From sequence record MN481365.1: a DNA stretch of 40,037 bases. One strand, written 5' to 3'. This document shows positions 7,150-34,263 of the stretch, piece after piece. Numbering within the stretch: position 1 is the stretch's first letter; each line of letters begins with the position of its first letter. The position numbers and the translations under genes are program-made. The notes beneath the pieces were generated by a model. That model was not told where the DNA came from. It saw only the letters and a program-made list of their open reading frames with translations, and made no database searches. This DNA comes from Escherichia phage vB_EcoP_PHB19.

Positions 7150-10100
7150 TTTCCGACGCTCCCTCAAGTTAACACCATTCGCCTCATAAATCTTCAACAC
7201 AAGCTGTTGCGTCAATGGGTCGTTTGGTACTAACTCTTTTGTGGAGTTCATGAGACCAGTCATGAAGTCCTGCTCAGTGGCTTTGTTGGGAGCATTCACC
7301 ACGCCAGCAGTATTAAGTAGGGAAGCCCCAACGTTAGCCACAAATCCAGCCGATGGCATCTGTTCAAGAATGTTGGAACCCATATTACCCATTACCTCCC
7401 ACGAGGTATAAGGCTTATTAGGGTCACGCTCACTTACGGTGTCTTTAGGAAGAATCGTAGAGCGAGCCATCTTTGAGGACTCAACCCCGAACAGGCCACC
7501 AACTAGGTCAGCCATAGCCAAAGGAGCACCTAATTGAGAACTACGCGACAACGAAGCGTGGGCAATCATGGTTGGGTCCAATGCACGCTCCAAGTATTCT
7601 TTACGTTTCTCCTTAGTCATCCCATACGCTTTGACGTGTGCAGCCATAGCGTAGTAACCACCAGCGAGACCCATAGAGATGATACCAGTCAGCGCAGCGT
7701 CAATCGCTCGGTTGTTCTTGTAACCATCGTAGAAGGTTCTCAGGAACTTAGAGTTAAGGGATTTGATAGTGAAAGACTTAAACTGCATAACCATCTTACC
7801 TAATGCTCCGAACGCATGTGAATCCTGTAATGATACCTTATGCGGACGCAGCATTGCCTCATCAGCTACCTTGTCAGCCAGTCGCCACAAGTCCATAGCT
7901 CTTGGGTCCATAGAGAACGCGTGCTTATCCTTAACGGTATACTTACCATCTTCACCACGCACCATGTGTTCCTTAATGAGTGCCTTGATTCCTTTCATCT
8001 GCTCAGGTGTAACTGACGCGCCGCGGAGGAATCCTTCCTTCTCCCAACGGGTAGTCTTCCCAGATAGGGTAGCACTAATAACGTCCCCAAGCATACCTTG
8101 ACGCGCAGCATCCAGAAGATAGTTAGTGGTTCCATTAAGCAGCTTAGTCCACGGAGAGCGAGCAGCCAGTTCCTGTGTGGAATACTTCAAGGTACCTACG
8201 ATGTTCGCCACAACAGGACCTGTATCAGTTGCTTCCCTTAGACGCTGAACTATGTCAGCACGTTGAGGTCTAATCAACTGGTCCACCTCCTTCCCGAACA
8301 GAGACGCATGGAGTTCCTTAAGTTCCTTAGCGGAAACTGGTTTAGACTTGTAGAGGGTATCACGTAGAATTGGTATACCGTGACCAAGAGCACGAACGTT
8401 ACCCGTGGCAATCATCCCAGCAATCTCCGTAAGGTTTTGAGCACCCATATAGGCGTTCTTGGCGAAGAACCCTAGGTCATTGATGGAACGAAGTGAGGTT
8501 TCCCATACAGTGTCCTGATTGCGTCGAGCACGACCAGTAAGAATCTTCACGGTATCCATGAGAGCATGTACCTCACCTGTCTTCTTACCGTCCCCCTCAG
8601 CTTTCGCTTTGAGAGCCAAAATCTCATCCTTAAGTTCCTTAGTGGTTTTACCGGTAGACCCCATTATTGCGATGTCACCGTTGATACGGCGGTCATACGC
8701 TGGCATGATACGGAACATATTAAAGTCCCTCAAATCGTTCACAGAGAATTGCTCACCGTCTGGCATGGTGATTGCTAAGTCGGAGTCAAAGAGGTTTCGT
8801 GCTTCAAGGAATGAATTATTCTCTATACCAACAAGACCCTCAATGTTCTCCTCAATGATGGAGCTATTAGTGAACCTGTCTGAGTGAGAGATACCGTATG
8901 CTTTATCCATAGCGTACTTATACACCATATCATGAGTGACTTCCTCTACACCGTGCATCTCTTTAAGTGCTTCGTCAATACGGGCCTTTACCGCAGGTCT
9001 CAAATCGTAGCTACACACCCATGACCGAGCGATACCTTCCTGTAAGCCCTCAGCACCATAGCGTTGAATTTTGAGTGCCTTAGCGTACTTGTCGTACACA
9101 TGTGGGACATACGTTCCCTTGTGTCTACTCTCTGGAAAGATACTCACAGCCTTCGTATTACCAAAGACCGCAGGGTTCTCCATAAGTTCACGCTTGGTGT
9201 CATAATGTCGCTTAACGATGTCCATTACGATTCGCTCGTTAGGAGTTAAAGCCTTCTGTAGCTCAGGGTTCTCAATAGCCAAGGCCACTCGACGCTCGAT
9301 AGTGTAACGAGCTTCTTCGCGAGACATCTTAGCGCCGCCAGTGGAGAACTCAGGGTCTTTCATCGCGTCAGACATTGCCTTATACAGGTCGTTGTAAGTA
9401 CGCTGGTCAGTGCCACGAAGTTTCTCGAAAATGTCAGAAGCTGTTGAACCATACTTACCTGAGGAACCTGATTGCATTCCGGTAGGAGACCGCACTAGGT
9501 CAATAGCTACCCGTCGAATATCAGCATCGTCTGAGCCTAAGGTCTTTAACCCAATCTCAGTGAACCCTGCTAGTTTGATACCTCGTGCCGCTTTCTCAGG
9601 GTCAACCTCGGAGAACTCTTTGAGAGTCTTGGGGTTGATTGGGTTGCTCGCACTAAGTATGGATCCGTCATGGAGAACCACAGCACCCTTTTCGGTCGGA
9701 AGTTCCTCATAAGGAACGCCTTTGTATTCACCTTCAAACTTCATGTTCTCAGTGTTAATCCTAGATAGGTCCGCAGAGTTGGCGTTACGCGCTGTCTCTC
9801 TGGCTTCCATTCGCATAATAGGACCAATGAACTCATTGTCGAACTCGGCTTCTGGTTTACTACGTTTCAGACCAGCAGCCACAGCGTCACTGATTGCAGA
9901 CATACCCGCACCAAACACAAAGCCACCTAATGCCGCACCAGCGTAATCCGCATCTCCACCAGCTACAGAGGTGCGGAGACCTTCGGATGCAACGTTCAGC
10001 GCAGCACTTTCGGCACCAACTACAAGGGCCTTATTGATTAACTTAAAGCCCTTACCAGTCACACCAACCATAGGAACATAACTGAGTGGGTCAACACCAG

Positions 10101-30109: not shown

Positions 30110-30561
30110 TATTTCTTCTCCTTCTTAATAATCATTTTGTCCCAAGGAATCTCCTTACTAGGTTCTTTAAGCCATTCCGCAGGTATCAACTTATCTGCGA
30201 ACTTAATGCTGTGTTTTTCTGCCCACTCACCGTAGCTGGTGGGAGACCCTTTGTATAACTTGGTGCGACTTGAAGAGAACACGATGCGTATATCGAGGTC
30301 TGGGAACTGTTCGCGAATAAGCAAATGTTTCTTACGGTCTTCTGCTTCGAACAATCCCTTGAACTCTACTATGATACCGTTTGGTAGCAACGCGTCAGGT
30401 GTATATTTATGGTTACTAGCTGGTATTACATAAGGGATTGAGAATGATTCATATTTAGCCTTAACTCCCATACTCTCCAAGCGTGCCATATTTTTCTCTT
30501 CAAGTCCACTTCGGTAGTTTCCTACACGTTTAATTCCTCGTGCTGCGTAACATGCTGCCAT
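30109..30561 (-). CDS. 3: Endonuclease I (Holliday-junction resolvase), divergent from T7
   Basis: 150 aa with the conserved core PYVIPASNH.YTPD..LPNGI.VE.KG...DRKKHLLIREQ.P.LDIRIVFSSSRTKLYKGSPTSYGE; about two-thirds identical to T7 gp3 by eye; DNA visibly more AT-rich than its neighbours. Confidence 0.9.
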   Translation of the reverse strand: MAACYAARGIKRVGNYRSGLEEKNMARLESMGVKAKYESFSIPYVIPASNHKYTPDALLPNGIIVEFKGLFEAEDRKKHLLIREQFPDLDIRIVFSSSRTKLYKGSPTSYGEWAEKHSIKFADKLIPAEWLKEPSKEIPWDKMIIKKEKK

Positions 30562-31019
30562 GCCTTACCTCTCTTTATGCAATGAATTAACTTCTGAGAG
30601 ACTCCAAACAGTGCTGCAAGTTTACGCTGCGACAAGGTTGACATATAGATTTCAAGTACCTCTTCTTCTGTCAGTTTAGCATTAACATGGTCACTTCCAA
30701 TCATTACCGGAGGTAGTTTGTTCCTCCCTCTACTGATAGCGTCTGAGCTGTTATCCTTATATGTGCCGCTACGCAAGTGCTCAGGATTACAACACTTGCG
30801 ATTATCACAGGAGTGTAAAACTAGCTGGCCTTTTGGAATCTCGCCAATGAACACCTCGTGTGAGACCCTATGTGCCGTCTCATTCCGGTGCCCTCCTGTA
30901 GCAATGTTTCCATAACCGTGACTCCCGAATGACTTCTGCCATATCCAGCATCCATTCTCATCGGGAATCACATTGTCTAGAATTTTCTTCTGCAATGCCT
31001 CACGGCTAAGGCGTGGCAT
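30522..31019 (-). CDS. HNH-family (HNH_3-type) endonuclease, putative homing endonuclease, at the T7 gene 2.8 position
   Basis: 165 aa; ENGCWIWQ...GYGNI...HRVSHEVFIGEIPKGQLVLHSCDNRKCCNPEHL is an HNH_3-like signature, followed by a helix-turn-helix-like tail. Start overlaps the gene 2.5 stop (TAATG); the 3' end overlaps gene 3. Confidence 0.8.
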   Translation of the reverse strand: MPRLSREALQKKILDNVIPDENGCWIWQKSFGSHGYGNIATGGHRNETAHRVSHEVFIGEIPKGQLVLHSCDNRKCCNPEHLRSGTYKDNSSDAISRGRNKLPPVMIGSDHVNAKLTEEEVLEIYMSTLSQRKLAALFGVSQKLIHCIKRGKAWQHVTQHEELNV

Positions 31020-31717
31020 TAAAAATCTCCGTCTGAGTCTTCTTCGTAAGAGCCTTCGTCGTCTTCGTCCCAGCTTTCTTCGTCGCGTGGTTTGCTCGCT
31101 TTGGCAGAACCAGAGGCAACATAGCCGTTCTCTTCAACTTCGTCAGCCCAATCGTCTTCACCGCCACCAAAGGTAGCCAGTTCGACCAGCATCACGGATT
31201 CCAGTTGCAGCTTAACGCTTGCACCCACAGCGGTGTTCCACTTGTACGGAACCAGAGAGTATTTGACTTTCAGCTTAGAGCCACCGCCGATAATCGGAAC
31301 GTCTTCCATCTTCTTACCTTTGGAGTCAACCACAACCAGATTGATGTGCTTGGTCTCTTTGGTCTTCTTGTCTTGGAAAGACGCGTAGCATTTAAACTTA
31401 AAGGTAGTCGTACCGTCACCGTTATCGAAGAACGGCATGTCACCTTCATACGGTTTCAGCGGTTTCTTACCACGAGCTACGGACGGCGGGTTAGCCTCAT
31501 ATTCCTCAACGGCAGCAGCATAAGCCTCTTCGTGACACTTCACGATTTCATCGACCATACGTTGACAACGCGGGTCTTTGTTGGGAATAGTCAGGTCAAC
31601 TTTGTAGACACCACGCGGGTTCCCAAAGCCACGCTCTTCGTTACCGTAGTCCGGCTTAGAGATGTAAGCGTAAGGTTCAGCAGTACCCAGTGCAGAGGTG
31701 AAAATCTTCTTAGCCAT
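31019..31717 (-). CDS. 2.5: Single-stranded DNA-binding protein
   Basis: 232 aa as in T7 gp2.5, with the acidic C-terminal tail ending DDEGSYEEDSDGDF. Confidence 0.97.
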   Translation of the reverse strand: MAKKIFTSALGTAEPYAYISKPDYGNEERGFGNPRGVYKVDLTIPNKDPRCQRMVDEIVKCHEEAYAAAVEEYEANPPSVARGKKPLKPYEGDMPFFDNGDGTTTFKFKCYASFQDKKTKETKHINLVVVDSKGKKMEDVPIIGGGSKLKVKYSLVPYKWNTAVGASVKLQLESVMLVELATFGGGEDDWADEVEENGYVASGSAKASKPRDEESWDEDDEGSYEEDSDGDF

Positions 31718-31750
31718 AATGTTAATCTCCTTTAGGTTTCGTTTAGTTTC

Positions 31751-31775
31751 TCAGAGGGAGTCTTCCCCAATAGTG
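31751..31775 (-). promoter_or_regulatory. T7 RNAP promoter phi2.5
   Basis: taatacgactcactattggggaaga on the coding strand (phi2.5-type start). Confidence 0.85.
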
Positions 31776-31782
31776 AGTCGTA

Positions 31783-32049
<267 letters not shown>

Positions 32050-32084
32050 CTATACACTCAGTCCACATCTTGTGGCACCATTCA

Positions 32085-32318
32085 CTAGGCTTTAAGATTG
32101 GCTTCATTAGCTTCCTCCAATCTCTTCAAGTACCACTGAGCCTTCTTCAAGTCCTCAGTAGGGTTAAACTTCTTCTCGTAACGCCACATGTATTTCAGTA
32201 CATTACCTTTAAGGAATCCTTTAAATGCCTCTTCTGTCATTGACGCGCGAATCGCGTCGAGACATTCAATTCCACCAGACGTGTAATGTTCTGGTTGGTT
32301 TACCATGTCTTTGCTCAT
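32085..32318 (-). CDS. Short gp1.7-like protein (77 aa), apparently only the conserved C-terminal core of the T7 nucleotide kinase gp1.7
   Basis: ...PEHYTSGGIECLDAIRASMTEEAFKGFLKGNVLKYMWRYEKK...DLKKAQWYLKRL matches the pattern of the T7 gp1.7 C-terminal region as I recall it; start overlaps the gene 1.6 stop (ATGA). Confidence 0.75.
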   Translation of the reverse strand: MSKDMVNQPEHYTSGGIECLDAIRASMTEEAFKGFLKGNVLKYMWRYEKKFNPTEDLKKAQWYLKRLEEANEANLKA

Positions 32319-32578
32319 CAGAACACCTCCTTGATTCGTTTGAGTAACAGACGGACGAACGGGAAGCGGGTCACTGCCACGCTAAGAACCGGACGTTTCT
32401 TGTCTATTGCTTTCTCGAAGTCACCACGAGTGATAATGATGTGGACGCTCGGTGCCAAAGGAACTGTGTTACCAATAAGAGGTAGCTTAGCTCGGCGCTC
32501 GCTCGCACATACGATCGAACGGTCAGCACGACGAACCGTGAAATTCTTAAGGCTTTTGTTGAAGTGAAGTCGGAACAT
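32318..32578 (-). CDS. 1.6: gp1.6
   Basis: Internal start [31 protein letters not shown]...; near-identical to T7 gp1.6. Confidence 0.9.
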
Positions 32579-32584
32579 ATAGTG

Positions 32585-32606
32585 TCTCCTATAGTGAGTC
32601 GTATTA
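32585..32606 (-). promoter_or_regulatory. T7 RNAP promoter phi1.6
   Basis: tctcctatagtgagtcgtatta. Confidence 0.85.
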
Positions 32607-32694
32607 AGCGTGACCATCGGGCATGTCGTCATCATTCTTAAAGTGAAGCGCAAGACATCCAATGATAATAATTAGTAATGGAAGTAAGTACATC
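32605..32694 (-). CDS. 1.5: gp1.5 (29 aa)
   Basis: Hand translation [30 protein letters not shown] between phi1.5 and phi1.6, same size and position as T7 gp1.5. Confidence 0.6.
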
Positions 32695-32704
32695 ATGAGG
32701 TGTA

Positions 32705-32726
32705 TCTCCTATAATGAGTCGTATTA
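32705..32726 (-). promoter_or_regulatory. T7 RNAP promoter phi1.5
   Basis: tctcctataatgagtcgtatta, one mismatch to consensus. Confidence 0.8.
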
Positions 32727-32727
32727 A

Positions 32728-32765
32728 ACGCAGAAAGGCCCACCTTTCGGTGAGCCAGTGTGGTT
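32728..32765 (-). terminator. TE early terminator for host RNA polymerase
   Basis: Coding strand ggctcacc-gaaa-ggtgggcc followed by tttctgcgttt, directly after ligase gene 1.3 as in T7. Confidence 0.85.
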
Positions 32766-33780
32766 ACATTTTCTCTTGAGGATTGTCCTCAGCGCCACGG
32801 AAGCAGGTGAATGAAGGATGTCTAAGGTTTCCATTAGGTGTTACCTCCATAAATCCAATTTGACAAGCCCACCCATTGTAGTAGTCCTCGCCATGTTCTT
32901 TAACGTTAGCTGTAAATTCATCCATCAGTTCCCGTGAGATGTTATTGGCATCGACTACACACCCGCTTTCTAGCAAGACACTAAAGCCAATAACTTTACC
33001 TTCGTTAGCAAGTCCTTCTGTGCCCCAGTTTACACCTTGAATGATGCCGTCAGCTTCCTCAAGAGGCTTAAGTTTCCACCAGCCGGACTTCTTGCCTCGC
33101 TTATAGATGCACATTGGGTCTTTCACAATGAGACCTTCATGTCCTTCCGCTCGCTTCTGCTCATACAGTTGCTGTAGTTCTACCATATCGTAGACCTCGT
33201 AAGACTCAGCCGCTTGCCATTCGATTTCAGGGAAGTATTCCTGTAGCAGAGGCAGCATGTTCTTAACGTGTTCCTGCATGAGTAACGTCATGACATCACA
33301 GTCTTCCCCTGATTCCACGATGTGCAGCGGGAGGATAGCGTACAGTTTGACACTCAGACGTTTGGTGTCCAACGCGAACTCAACCTTGGACCCCTTGAGT
33401 GGTGGCACACCGCCAACGTCGAACTCAAAGTTCTTCTTGTTGAGCCACTTGGTACGCAGTAGGCCGGACCCAGTGTTGAAGTCTACGCCTTTGACCATTA
33501 GTTCACCATCAAGCATAAAGCCATCTCTGTAGAAGCAGCGGTCGTCGCTCAGTAGACGCTTCCAGCGAACATCAAATCCGTTTAAGTGCTCCAGTGCCGG
33601 AATCGTTTTAGATACACGAGAGAGCCAGCAACTGTTAGCGGTATTGTCAACTACAATGTTACCACGAACTCCGTCATATTTTACATCACAAATAAGATAC
33701 CCAGCGTTGTCCAGAGCTTTCTTAATGGCAGACTCTACGAAAGACGTTGCTTTAAATGGGTTGGTCTTAATGTTCATCAT
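32764..33780 (-). CDS. 1.3: ATP-dependent DNA ligase
   Basis: 338 aa; adenylation motif KYDGVRG; T7 gp1.3 homolog but about 21 aa shorter through two internal deletions (from recalled T7 sequence). Confidence 0.96.
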   Translation of the reverse strand: MMNIKTNPFKATSFVESAIKKALDNAGYLICDVKYDGVRGNIVVDNTANSCWLSRVSKTIPALEHLNGFDVRWKRLLSDDRCFYRDGFMLDGELMVKGVDFNTGSGLLRTKWLNKKNFEFDVGGVPPLKGSKVEFALDTKRLSVKLYAILPLHIVESGEDCDVMTLLMQEHVKNMLPLLQEYFPEIEWQAAESYEVYDMVELQQLYEQKRAEGHEGLIVKDPMCIYKRGKKSGWWKLKPLEEADGIIQGVNWGTEGLANEGKVIGFSVLLESGCVVDANNISRELMDEFTANVKEHGEDYYNGWACQIGFMEVTPNGNLRHPSFTCFRGAEDNPQEKM

Positions 33781-33840: not shown

Positions 33841-33863
33841 TGTCCCTTTAGTGAGTCGTATTA
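33841..33863 (-). promoter_or_regulatory. T7 RNAP promoter phi1.3
   Basis: taatacgactcactaaagggaca on the coding strand. Confidence 0.85.
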
Positions 33864-34133
33864 CTTCCAGTGCTGTAGGTCACTGTGTACCTTACGGAGC
33901 CATTCGGTCTGTGCATTACAGCGAACGTCTTCATCTGACTGCTCGAAACACTTAGCGGTCAGCATTAAGCCATCCCGCAATATCACTCGAAGTGTCTCAC
34001 CGGCAACCATCCGTCGCTGTTCGAAGTCCTCATAGCGATAAGTTTCAACGACCACATTTGCATCATAGTCTTCTTTAAGTCTCTCGATAGCGTCTTTGTA
34101 TGCTATTAAGTTGCCACTGTATAAACGTCCCAT
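33861..34133 (-). CDS. 1.2: gp1.2 (host dGTPase inhibitor in T7)
   Basis: Internal start MGRLYSGNL... as in T7 gp1.2; C-terminal half is divergent. Confidence 0.8.
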   Translation of the reverse strand: MGRLYSGNLIAYKDAIERLKEDYDANVVVETYRYEDFEQRRMVAGETLRVILRDGLMLTAKCFEQSDEDVRCNAQTEWLRKVHSDLQHWK

Positions 34134-34134
34134 C

Positions 34135-34263
34135 TTACTGACCATCCCAGCAGCGTTTATGAGCACGGGTGCGCATTGGTTTATTAAACTTGCGACCTTT
34201 GGTTGCCTCGAAGTCATGAGCGTTACGGTTGGAACGTTTTGTCATCTTTTCGAAGTTACGCAT
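34135..34263 (-). CDS. 1.1: gp1.1 (42 aa, basic)
   Basis: Hand translation MRNFEKMTKRSNRNAHDFEATKGRKFNKPMRTRAHKRCWDGQ, near-identical to T7 gp1.1. Confidence 0.8.
   Translation of the reverse strand: MRNFEKMTKRSNRNAHDFEATKGRKFNKPMRTRAHKRCWDGQ

Follow-up and report, generated by a model that had tools for sequence, protein, structure and literature searches.

Introduction

Gene 1.7 of bacteriophage T7 lies between genes 1.6 and 1.8, and its product (gp1.7; NP_041967) is a protein of 196 amino acids in which the DUF3310 domain is found solely at residues 122-184, with no Pfam family in the first 121 residues. T7 gp1.7 phosphorylates dTMP and dGMP and is the sole characterised enzyme of its family (summarised in PMC11897194). 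A much shorter gene 1.7 has been catalogued since 2003 in Yersinia phage phiA1122, where the 76-residue protein 1.7 (AAP20506 / NP_848270) carries the RefSeq name 'nucleotide kinase'. Another described member of the group is SaV of the Lactococcus phages, an early, toxic protein that is required for sensitivity to the abortive infection system AbiV (PMC8306868).

Here we report on the gene 1.7 locus of Escherichia phage vB_EcoP_PHB19 (sequence record MN481365.1); throughout, the window denotes the whole stretch of 40,037 nucleotides that was analysed. The locus encodes a protein of only 77 amino acids, and we ask what this protein is, how it came to stand between genes 1.6 and 1.8, and what it is likely to do.

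Results

Genomic setting and the absence of gene 1.4

The window represents a T7-like podovirus (Teseptimavirus), whose genes all lie on the minus strand and which has 12 near-consensus T7 promoters. Its gene order is that of T7 and runs RNA polymerase, 1.1, 1.2, ligase, TE, phi1.5, 1.5, phi1.6, 1.6, 1.7, 1.8, 2, phi2.5, 2.5, an HNH ORF, 3, 3.5 and 4; the features around gene 1.7 are collected in Table 1. When the 20 kb from 20000 to 40037 were compared with INPHARED, the nearest records were pO111, ESh6, HZ2R8 and vB_Yep_9, each with about 92% identity across some 90% of the query. Genes 1.6, 1.7, 1.8 and 2 are assigned from the sequence to the phi1.6 promoter.

Table 1. Features of the gene 1.7 region, listed in the direction of transcription.
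Feature	Position	Strand	Basis
TE terminator, hairpin GGCUCACC-GAAA-GGUGGGCC followed by UUUCUGCGUUU	32727-32756	minus	Fold and T7 homology
phi1.5 promoter (TAATACGACTCATTATAGGAGAT)	32704-32726	minus	Sequence reading
Gene 1.5 (30 aa)	32604-32696	minus	ORF; position as in T7 and phiA1122 gene 1.5
phi1.6 class II T7 promoter (TAATACGACTCACTATAGGAGAC)	32584-32606	minus	Sequence reading; homologous to T7 phi1.6 region
Gene 1.6 (86 aa), full length, T7-type	32318-32578	minus	261 nt as in T7
Ribosome-binding site of gene 1.7 (AAGGAGGTG), within the end of gene 1.6	32324-32332	minus	Sequence reading
Gene 1.7, short allele, stand-alone DUF3310 protein (77 aa)	32085-32318	minus	ORF, 77 codons and TAG stop
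Gene 1.8 (42 aa), N30-type variant	31979-32107	minus	phrog_1312, E 8e-21
Gene 2 (64 aa), host RNA polymerase inhibitor	31783-31977	minus	Pfam RNA_pol_inhib, E 3.7e-28

The first-pass annotation of this DNA had found no space for gene 1.4 between the TE terminator and phi1.5, and our analysis bears this out. The phi1.5 promoter directly abuts the U-tract of TE, so that gene 1.4 must be absent; pairwise DNA comparison revealed no counterpart in the window of T7 segment 7594-7760, and a tblastn search of the whole window with gp1.4 returned no match. This absence is the usual state in related phages, among them phiA1122, N30, ESh6 and vB_Yep_9, whose alignments with the window run uninterrupted across the site. 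The terminator itself was not flagged by a consensus terminator scan and was recovered by homology to T7, with 89% identity to the T7 TE region, and by direct folding of the hairpin at 32756-32737 (dG -16.5 kcal/mol, z -3.36).

Several observations on the neighbouring features are recorded here in their own right. The product of gene 1.6 matches Pfam PF06726 ('Bladder cancer-related protein BC10'; E 1.5e-23), which places the T7 gp1.6 family and a eukaryotic protein in one Pfam family. The phi2.5 promoter (31763-31785, minus strand; TAATACGACTCACTATTGGGGAA) has three mismatches to the T7 consensus, and its first three bases are the TAA stop codon of gene 2 (31785-31783). An ORF of 165 codons at 30522-31019 on the minus strand, which resembles homing endonucleases of the HNH_3 / His-Me finger type (E 2.9e-10), lies between genes 2.5 and 3, with about 40 nt shared with the beginning of gene 3; the corresponding site is occupied by gene 2.8 (139 aa) in T7 and is empty in ESh6 and phiA1122. 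Gene 1.2 is listed as an ORF of 118 codons (33861-34217, minus strand), and translation most likely starts at 34133, from an internal Met (MGRLYSGNL..., 90 aa) that lies just past the gene 1.1 stop as in T7; the 90-residue product matches Pfam T7-like_gp12 with an E value of 8.7e-12.

A short gene 1.7 under purifying selection

The first-pass annotation had described gene 1.7 as a 77-aa ORF, and its 77 codons and stop were confirmed on the minus strand. The stop of gene 1.6 and the start of gene 1.7 overlap as TGATG, which suggests, from the arrangement of the codons, that the two genes are translationally coupled; T7 shows the same sharing of bases, with the end of gene 1.6 and the start of gene 1.7 both at 8166. 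Upstream of the gene 1.7 ATG the reading frame meets an in-frame stop at 21 codons, with no alternative start codon in between, and the ORF therefore cannot be longer than 77 codons. By position, it stands where T7 has its gene 1.7: after gene 1.6, before genes 1.8 and 2, and downstream of phi1.5 and phi1.6. It is accordingly a class II (DNA-metabolism) gene.

Because the ORF is so much shorter than T7 gene 1.7, and solely for that reason, we considered whether a frameshift or an assembly error had cut a longer gene, or whether the ORF is a gene at all. Nothing was found in favour of such an artefact, to which we give almost no credence. The same ORF, of 76-78 codons and at an identity of at least 90%, is carried by at least 14 independent phage records and by metagenome clusters, one of which (P0001, at 99% identity) comprises 23 sequences on 15 contigs; the exact 77-aa sequence had no match in the assembly index. 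On either side of it, genes 1.6 and 1.8 are intact. A frameshift that would merge the ORF with an upstream frame, the outcome on which the first-pass reading was to have fallen, is excluded by the full length of gene 1.6 (261 nt) and by the upstream in-frame stop, and coding potential for the N-terminal part of T7 gp1.7 is absent from every frame. The pattern of substitution points the same way: over 72 codons compared with the phiA1122 allele, 31 differences are synonymous and 4 non-synonymous, and the comparison with ESh6 gives a dN/dS ratio of 0.044. Truncation was thus rejected on the full-length gene 1.6, the T7-like overlap of genes 1.6 and 1.7, the recurrence of the ORF and the selection acting on it, and we conclude from these sequence comparisons that the 77-aa ORF is a real gene under strong purifying selection.

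The 77-residue protein consists of the DUF3310 domain

The product of gene 1.7 matches Pfam PF11753 (DUF3310) from end to end, with residues 6-65 covering positions 1-60 of the 60-position profile (E 2.1e-25, 89 bits against a gathering cut-off of 24 bits), and it also matches phrog_2585 (E 1.1e-24). In BLASTP it aligns with residues 122-183 of T7 gp1.7 at 44% identity over 62 amino acids (E 2e-11). The proposal of the first-pass annotation that the ORF corresponds to the conserved C-terminal core of gp1.7 is thus upheld, both in the motif that it quoted and in the alignments to gp1.7 and to DUF3310 proteins that it called for, which are significant. It was equally right that the N-terminal region of T7 gp1.7 is missing: a tblastn search of the whole window recovers no coding sequence for these approximately 120 Cys-rich residues (best E 0.14).

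An alignment of seven diverse members of the family, including T7 gp1.7 and the homologues from SP6, phiYeO3-12, Hammy, PH15 and FK1979, defines 15 invariant columns, and all 15 residues are present in the 77-aa protein (P9, H11, Y12, E18, G38, N39, K42, Y43, R46, K50, D56, L57, K59, A60 and Y63). They make up the DUF3310 motif P-x-H-Y, E, G-N-x-x-K-Y-x-x-R-x-x-x-K, D-L-x-K-A-x-x-Y; among 75 close homologues the number of invariant columns is 16. The protein has neither a Walker A motif (GxxxxGK[ST]) nor a match to any kinase family, and is therefore not a classical P-loop NMP kinase of the Tmk, Gmk or Adk kind.

An AlphaFold2 model of the monomer, built on 75 sequences, has a pLDDT of 82 and comprises three helices, which span residues 20-26, 29-48 and 53-76. 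Residues 1-19, the N-terminal segment with the highest conservation, are modelled with low confidence, as would be expected if this motif becomes ordered only in an oligomer. No PDB chain is related to the protein by sequence or profile, and the gp1.7 kinase family is without a solved structure. Fold comparison of the model gave no informative match; the hits in BFVD are models of other DUF3310 proteins, named 'SaV-like' or 'nucleotide kinase'.

A phiA1122-type gene 1.7 next to an N30-type gene 1.8

The short gene 1.7 is an already known allele, first catalogued in phiA1122, whose protein 1.7 is 95% identical to that of the window; the phiA1122-type allele is also present in YpP-Y, YpsP-G, YpP-R, Y, R and EFA-2. 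Closer still are the unnamed proteins of the Shigella phage ESh6 (URY10871) and of Yersinia phage vB_Yep_9, at 97-99% identity. The gene is unnamed in the ESh6 annotation and missing from that of vB_Yep_9, and the exact arrangement of genes 1.7 and 1.8 seen in the window is common only to these two phages.

Pairwise DNA comparisons place sharp boundaries around the gene. Against T7, identity is 91.5% from phi1.5 through gene 1.6 to position 32316, in the first codon of gene 1.7, where homology is lost, to return only at 31994, at the end of gene 1.8. Against N30, whose gp1.7 is of the long form (180 aa), identity is 96% up to the same position and resumes at 32096, at the start of gene 1.8, at 97.5%. 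The comparison with phiA1122 runs on from the ligase gene through the whole of the short gene 1.7 to 32103, at 88.5%. The first-pass annotation had raised a loss in this phage as one of two possibilities, should the kinase activity of gp1.7 need the N-terminal region. A simple deletion of the T7 N-terminus was rejected, as gene 1.7 shares no homologous DNA with T7 or N30 while its flanks are 91-97% identical; what stands here is a different allele. Since the homologous DNA of T7 and of N30 ends at the start codon of gene 1.7 and returns in gene 1.8, we conclude from these breaks that the short gene 1.7 is placed by cassette exchange among T7-group phages, with the left junction at the gene 1.7 start codon and the right junction within the first codons of gene 1.8. 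The window is, on this evidence, a mosaic in which a gene 1.7 cassette of phiA1122 type adjoins a gene 1.8 of N30 type.

The first-pass annotation had also seen no room for gene 1.8, and here it was mistaken. A gp1.8 of 42 residues is encoded directly downstream of gene 1.7, whose last 23 nt its gene overlaps; it has a ribosome-binding site of its own (GGAGGAAG) within the end of gene 1.7, and its stop codon lies two bases ahead of the ATG of gene 2. In addition to its match to phrog_1312, the protein shares 16 invariant columns with the gp1.8 proteins of T7 and phiA1122 (SEWCxKMW...Y..LY..W.SRG), T7 gp1.8 finds it in the window by tblastn (E 3e-5), and over 35 residues it is identical to an unannotated ORF of N30, with two synonymous differences between the genes. 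Compared with T7 gp1.8 it has a shorter N-terminus and an insert of seven residues. The same ORF is present, unannotated, in the GenBank records of N30, ESh6 and vB_Yep_9.

In phiA1122 gene 1.7 is followed by an ORF for an HNH endonuclease of 156 aa and then by a T7-type gp1.8, whereas the window has no HNH ORF after gene 1.7 and carries the N30-type gp1.8 instead. The ATG of gene 1.8 in the window (32103-32107, taken with GGAGGAAG) is homologous to the start ATG of the phiA1122 HNH ORF, which would put the junction of an HNH insertion or loss within the first codons after this ATG.

Length and distribution of DUF3310 proteins

A tblastn search with the 77-aa protein detects the DUF3310 domain in 1676 phage records, with hosts that include Klebsiella, Mycobacterium, Enterococcus, Listeria and Staphylococcus. 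The N-terminal 121 residues of T7 gp1.7, by comparison, occur in only 301 records, which are Studiervirinae-like and mostly from Escherichia and Klebsiella phages (T7, 13a, K1F, Kayfunavirus, K11). The domain is also part of longer members of the family (T7, 196 aa; SP6 and phiYeO3-12, 156 aa; Hammy gp54, 244 aa; PH15, 144 aa; FK1979, 148 aa), and in all six DUF3310 is C-terminal and the N-terminal parts are mutually unrelated. Of the 120 closest homologues, 74 have a length of 70-89 aa, and at IMG/VR loci the ORF measures 60-99 aa in 34 of 76 cases. By these counts the stand-alone DUF3310 protein of 70-90 aa is the commonest form among the closest relatives, and the T7 extension is best seen as a lineage-specific addition to a common domain-only form. 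The first-pass annotation thus argued in the inverse direction.

The genes around DUF3310 ORFs were tried as a guide to function. On five of six long metagenomic contigs, stand-alone homologues of 73-79 aa are separated by no more than one to three genes from ThyX, dUTPase, MazG or NrdD; in a larger set of IMG/VR loci that was less selected, a ThyX, dUTPase or MazG neighbour was detectable by tblastn in 7 of 80, a figure that has no background control. With this fraction and no background rate the argument from a thymidylate neighbourhood is anecdotal, and it was not upheld as firm support for a role in the thymidylate pathway.

Discussion

Our study describes a gene 1.7 that consists of the conserved family domain alone, and that is for this reason a commonplace mosaic variant and nothing newly discovered. 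Taken as a whole, we think it probable that the locus carries a selected, phiA1122-type, DUF3310-only allele which arrived by cassette exchange and encodes an oligomeric nucleotide-pool protein, probably a dTMP/dGMP kinase. Given the activity of T7 gp1.7 and the retention of the invariant residues under strong purifying selection, the function most likely, by analogy, is that of a small oligomeric dTMP/dGMP kinase or a related nucleotide-pool protein.

We propose that the 77-aa protein would form a homo-oligomer of small helical subunits, like the homologous C-terminal part of T7 gp1.7. In such an assembly the invariant N-terminal P-x-H-Y...E segment could pack on helix 2 of an adjacent subunit, against its likewise invariant GN..KY..R...K face, and thereby form the nucleotide site. 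The protein would act on the nucleotide pool, most probably converting dTMP and dGMP from degraded host DNA to the diphosphates without a P-loop, and the dNMPs released by host-DNA breakdown would in this way be fed into phage replication. The approximately 120 Cys-rich N-terminal residues of T7 gp1.7 would be a lineage-specific accessory, outside the core function. Tran et al. reportedly found in 2010 that the C-terminal half of gp1.7 suffices for dideoxythymidine sensitivity, and their work of 2010 and 2012 is said to describe an enzyme that needs no metal, assembles from about 12 subunits and is equally active as a 17.8-kDa form that lacks about 40 N-terminal residues.

The idea of a minimal functional domain, raised in the first-pass annotation, is plausible on this analogy. 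Its strongest form, in which the 77-aa protein alone would be a complete, P-loop-free and metal-independent dTMP/dGMP kinase with active sites between the subunits of a homo-oligomer, we put forward tentatively, as somewhat less than an even prospect. Against reading the protein as a kinase, it shares no more than 44% of its residues with the one enzyme that has been characterised, with no homology at the DNA level, and SaV, which also contains DUF3310, is known for early expression, toxicity, its interaction with AbiV and its part as an Abi trigger, and not as a kinase.

Loss of the kinase would be one way to account for the short form: the domain alone would be a nucleotide-binding or scaffolding remnant with a minor role, and the phage would use the host enzymes Tmk and Gmk. 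The window does lack the N-terminal 121 residues of T7 gp1.7, and T7 can do without its gene 1.7 in the laboratory (PMC9712115). Against a remnant stand the strong purifying selection on the short allele, the retention of every family-invariant residue and the prevalence of the domain-only form over many phage lineages. The missing region is itself found in a narrow range of taxa and lacks conservation across T7, SP6, phiYeO3-12 and others, and function reportedly survives both in the 17.8-kDa gp1.7 and in the C-terminal half alone. We therefore regard loss of the kinase as improbable.

A role like that of SaV deserves slightly more weight, although we consider it unlikely as well. Here the protein would be an early effector of host takeover, or a toxic one, directed at a host factor and without kinase activity of its own, and would matter mainly as the target of abortive-infection sensors (AbiV, Avs5, retron), with allele swaps serving as escape. 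SaV of Lactococcus phage sk1 is indeed a DUF3310 protein (35 bits), toxic and needed for AbiV abortive infection (PMC8306868), and mycobacteriophage DUF3310 proteins are among the most toxic when overexpressed (PMC9339283, PMC10700055). T7 gp1.7 activates EfAvs5 (PMC11897194), and T7 escapers of retron Ec48 carry gp1.7 Y128C, a change in the invariant Tyr of PxHY (bioRxiv 10.1101/2020.06.21.156273) that corresponds to Y12 of the 77-aa protein (codon 32283-32285). The gene 1.7 cassette is, moreover, swapped between genomes that are otherwise 96-97% identical. On the other side, the 77-aa protein is nearer to T7 gp1.7 (44%, 62 aa) than to SaV (32%, 41 aa, E 0.006), and in the retron Ec48 escapers Y128C is accompanied by a gp5.9 mutation, so that the two effects are not separated. 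Both toxicity and sensing would fit a kinase that disturbs dNTP pools, and thus leave room for kinase activity in such proteins.

Whichever function applies, the Y128C change, the activation of Avs5 and the pairing of AbiV with SaV hint that DUF3310 proteins are recurrent immune triggers, and such targeting might favour the exchange of gene 1.7 alleles. As DUF3310 recurs as a trigger of immunity through AbiV, Avs5 and possibly retron Ec48, the diversity of these alleles may matter for host range. Should the 77-aa protein prove to be a complete kinase, no natural nucleotide kinase would be smaller, and none would be more tractable for work on the structure and mechanism of the gp1.7/DUF3310 group; as a corollary, recognition of DUF3310 by host sensors (Avs5, AbiV-like, retron) would drive the swapping of gene 1.7 cassettes in T7-like phages. 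The gene itself brings little that is new, as the same short form is in GenBank for phiA1122 (2003) and its relatives, ESh6 and vB_Yep_9, and pipelines label such proteins 'DUF3310' or 'nucleotide kinase'. A natural domain-only member of 77 residues that keeps every invariant residue is still a convenient target for biochemistry and structure, and the locus offers a clean case of gene-precise cassette exchange in the T7 group.

Set against the described systems, the most distant is SaV (ORF26 of the Lactococcus phages sk1 and p2), likewise a small early phage protein with DUF3310, which keeps the HY...E...LKY..R..KK motif. In SaV the domain is N-terminal and followed by about 60 unrelated residues that the 77-aa protein does not have, and the GN motif is not conserved; the similarity of the two (32% over 41 residues) lies entirely within the shared DUF3310 core, with none outside it. 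T7 gp1.7 agrees with the 77-aa protein in its locus between genes 1.6 and 1.8, in the overlap with the gene 1.6 stop, in the domain and in all invariant residues; it differs in its 121 N-terminal residues with Cys-rich motifs, and DNA-level homology to the short allele is absent across the gene. In phiA1122 the gene likewise follows gene 1.6 directly and belongs to the length class seen in the window. ESh6 and vB_Yep_9 are closest of all, with the same local gene order, no HNH insert and colinear DNA of about 94% identity over 31700-32800 that differs from the window by point differences only.
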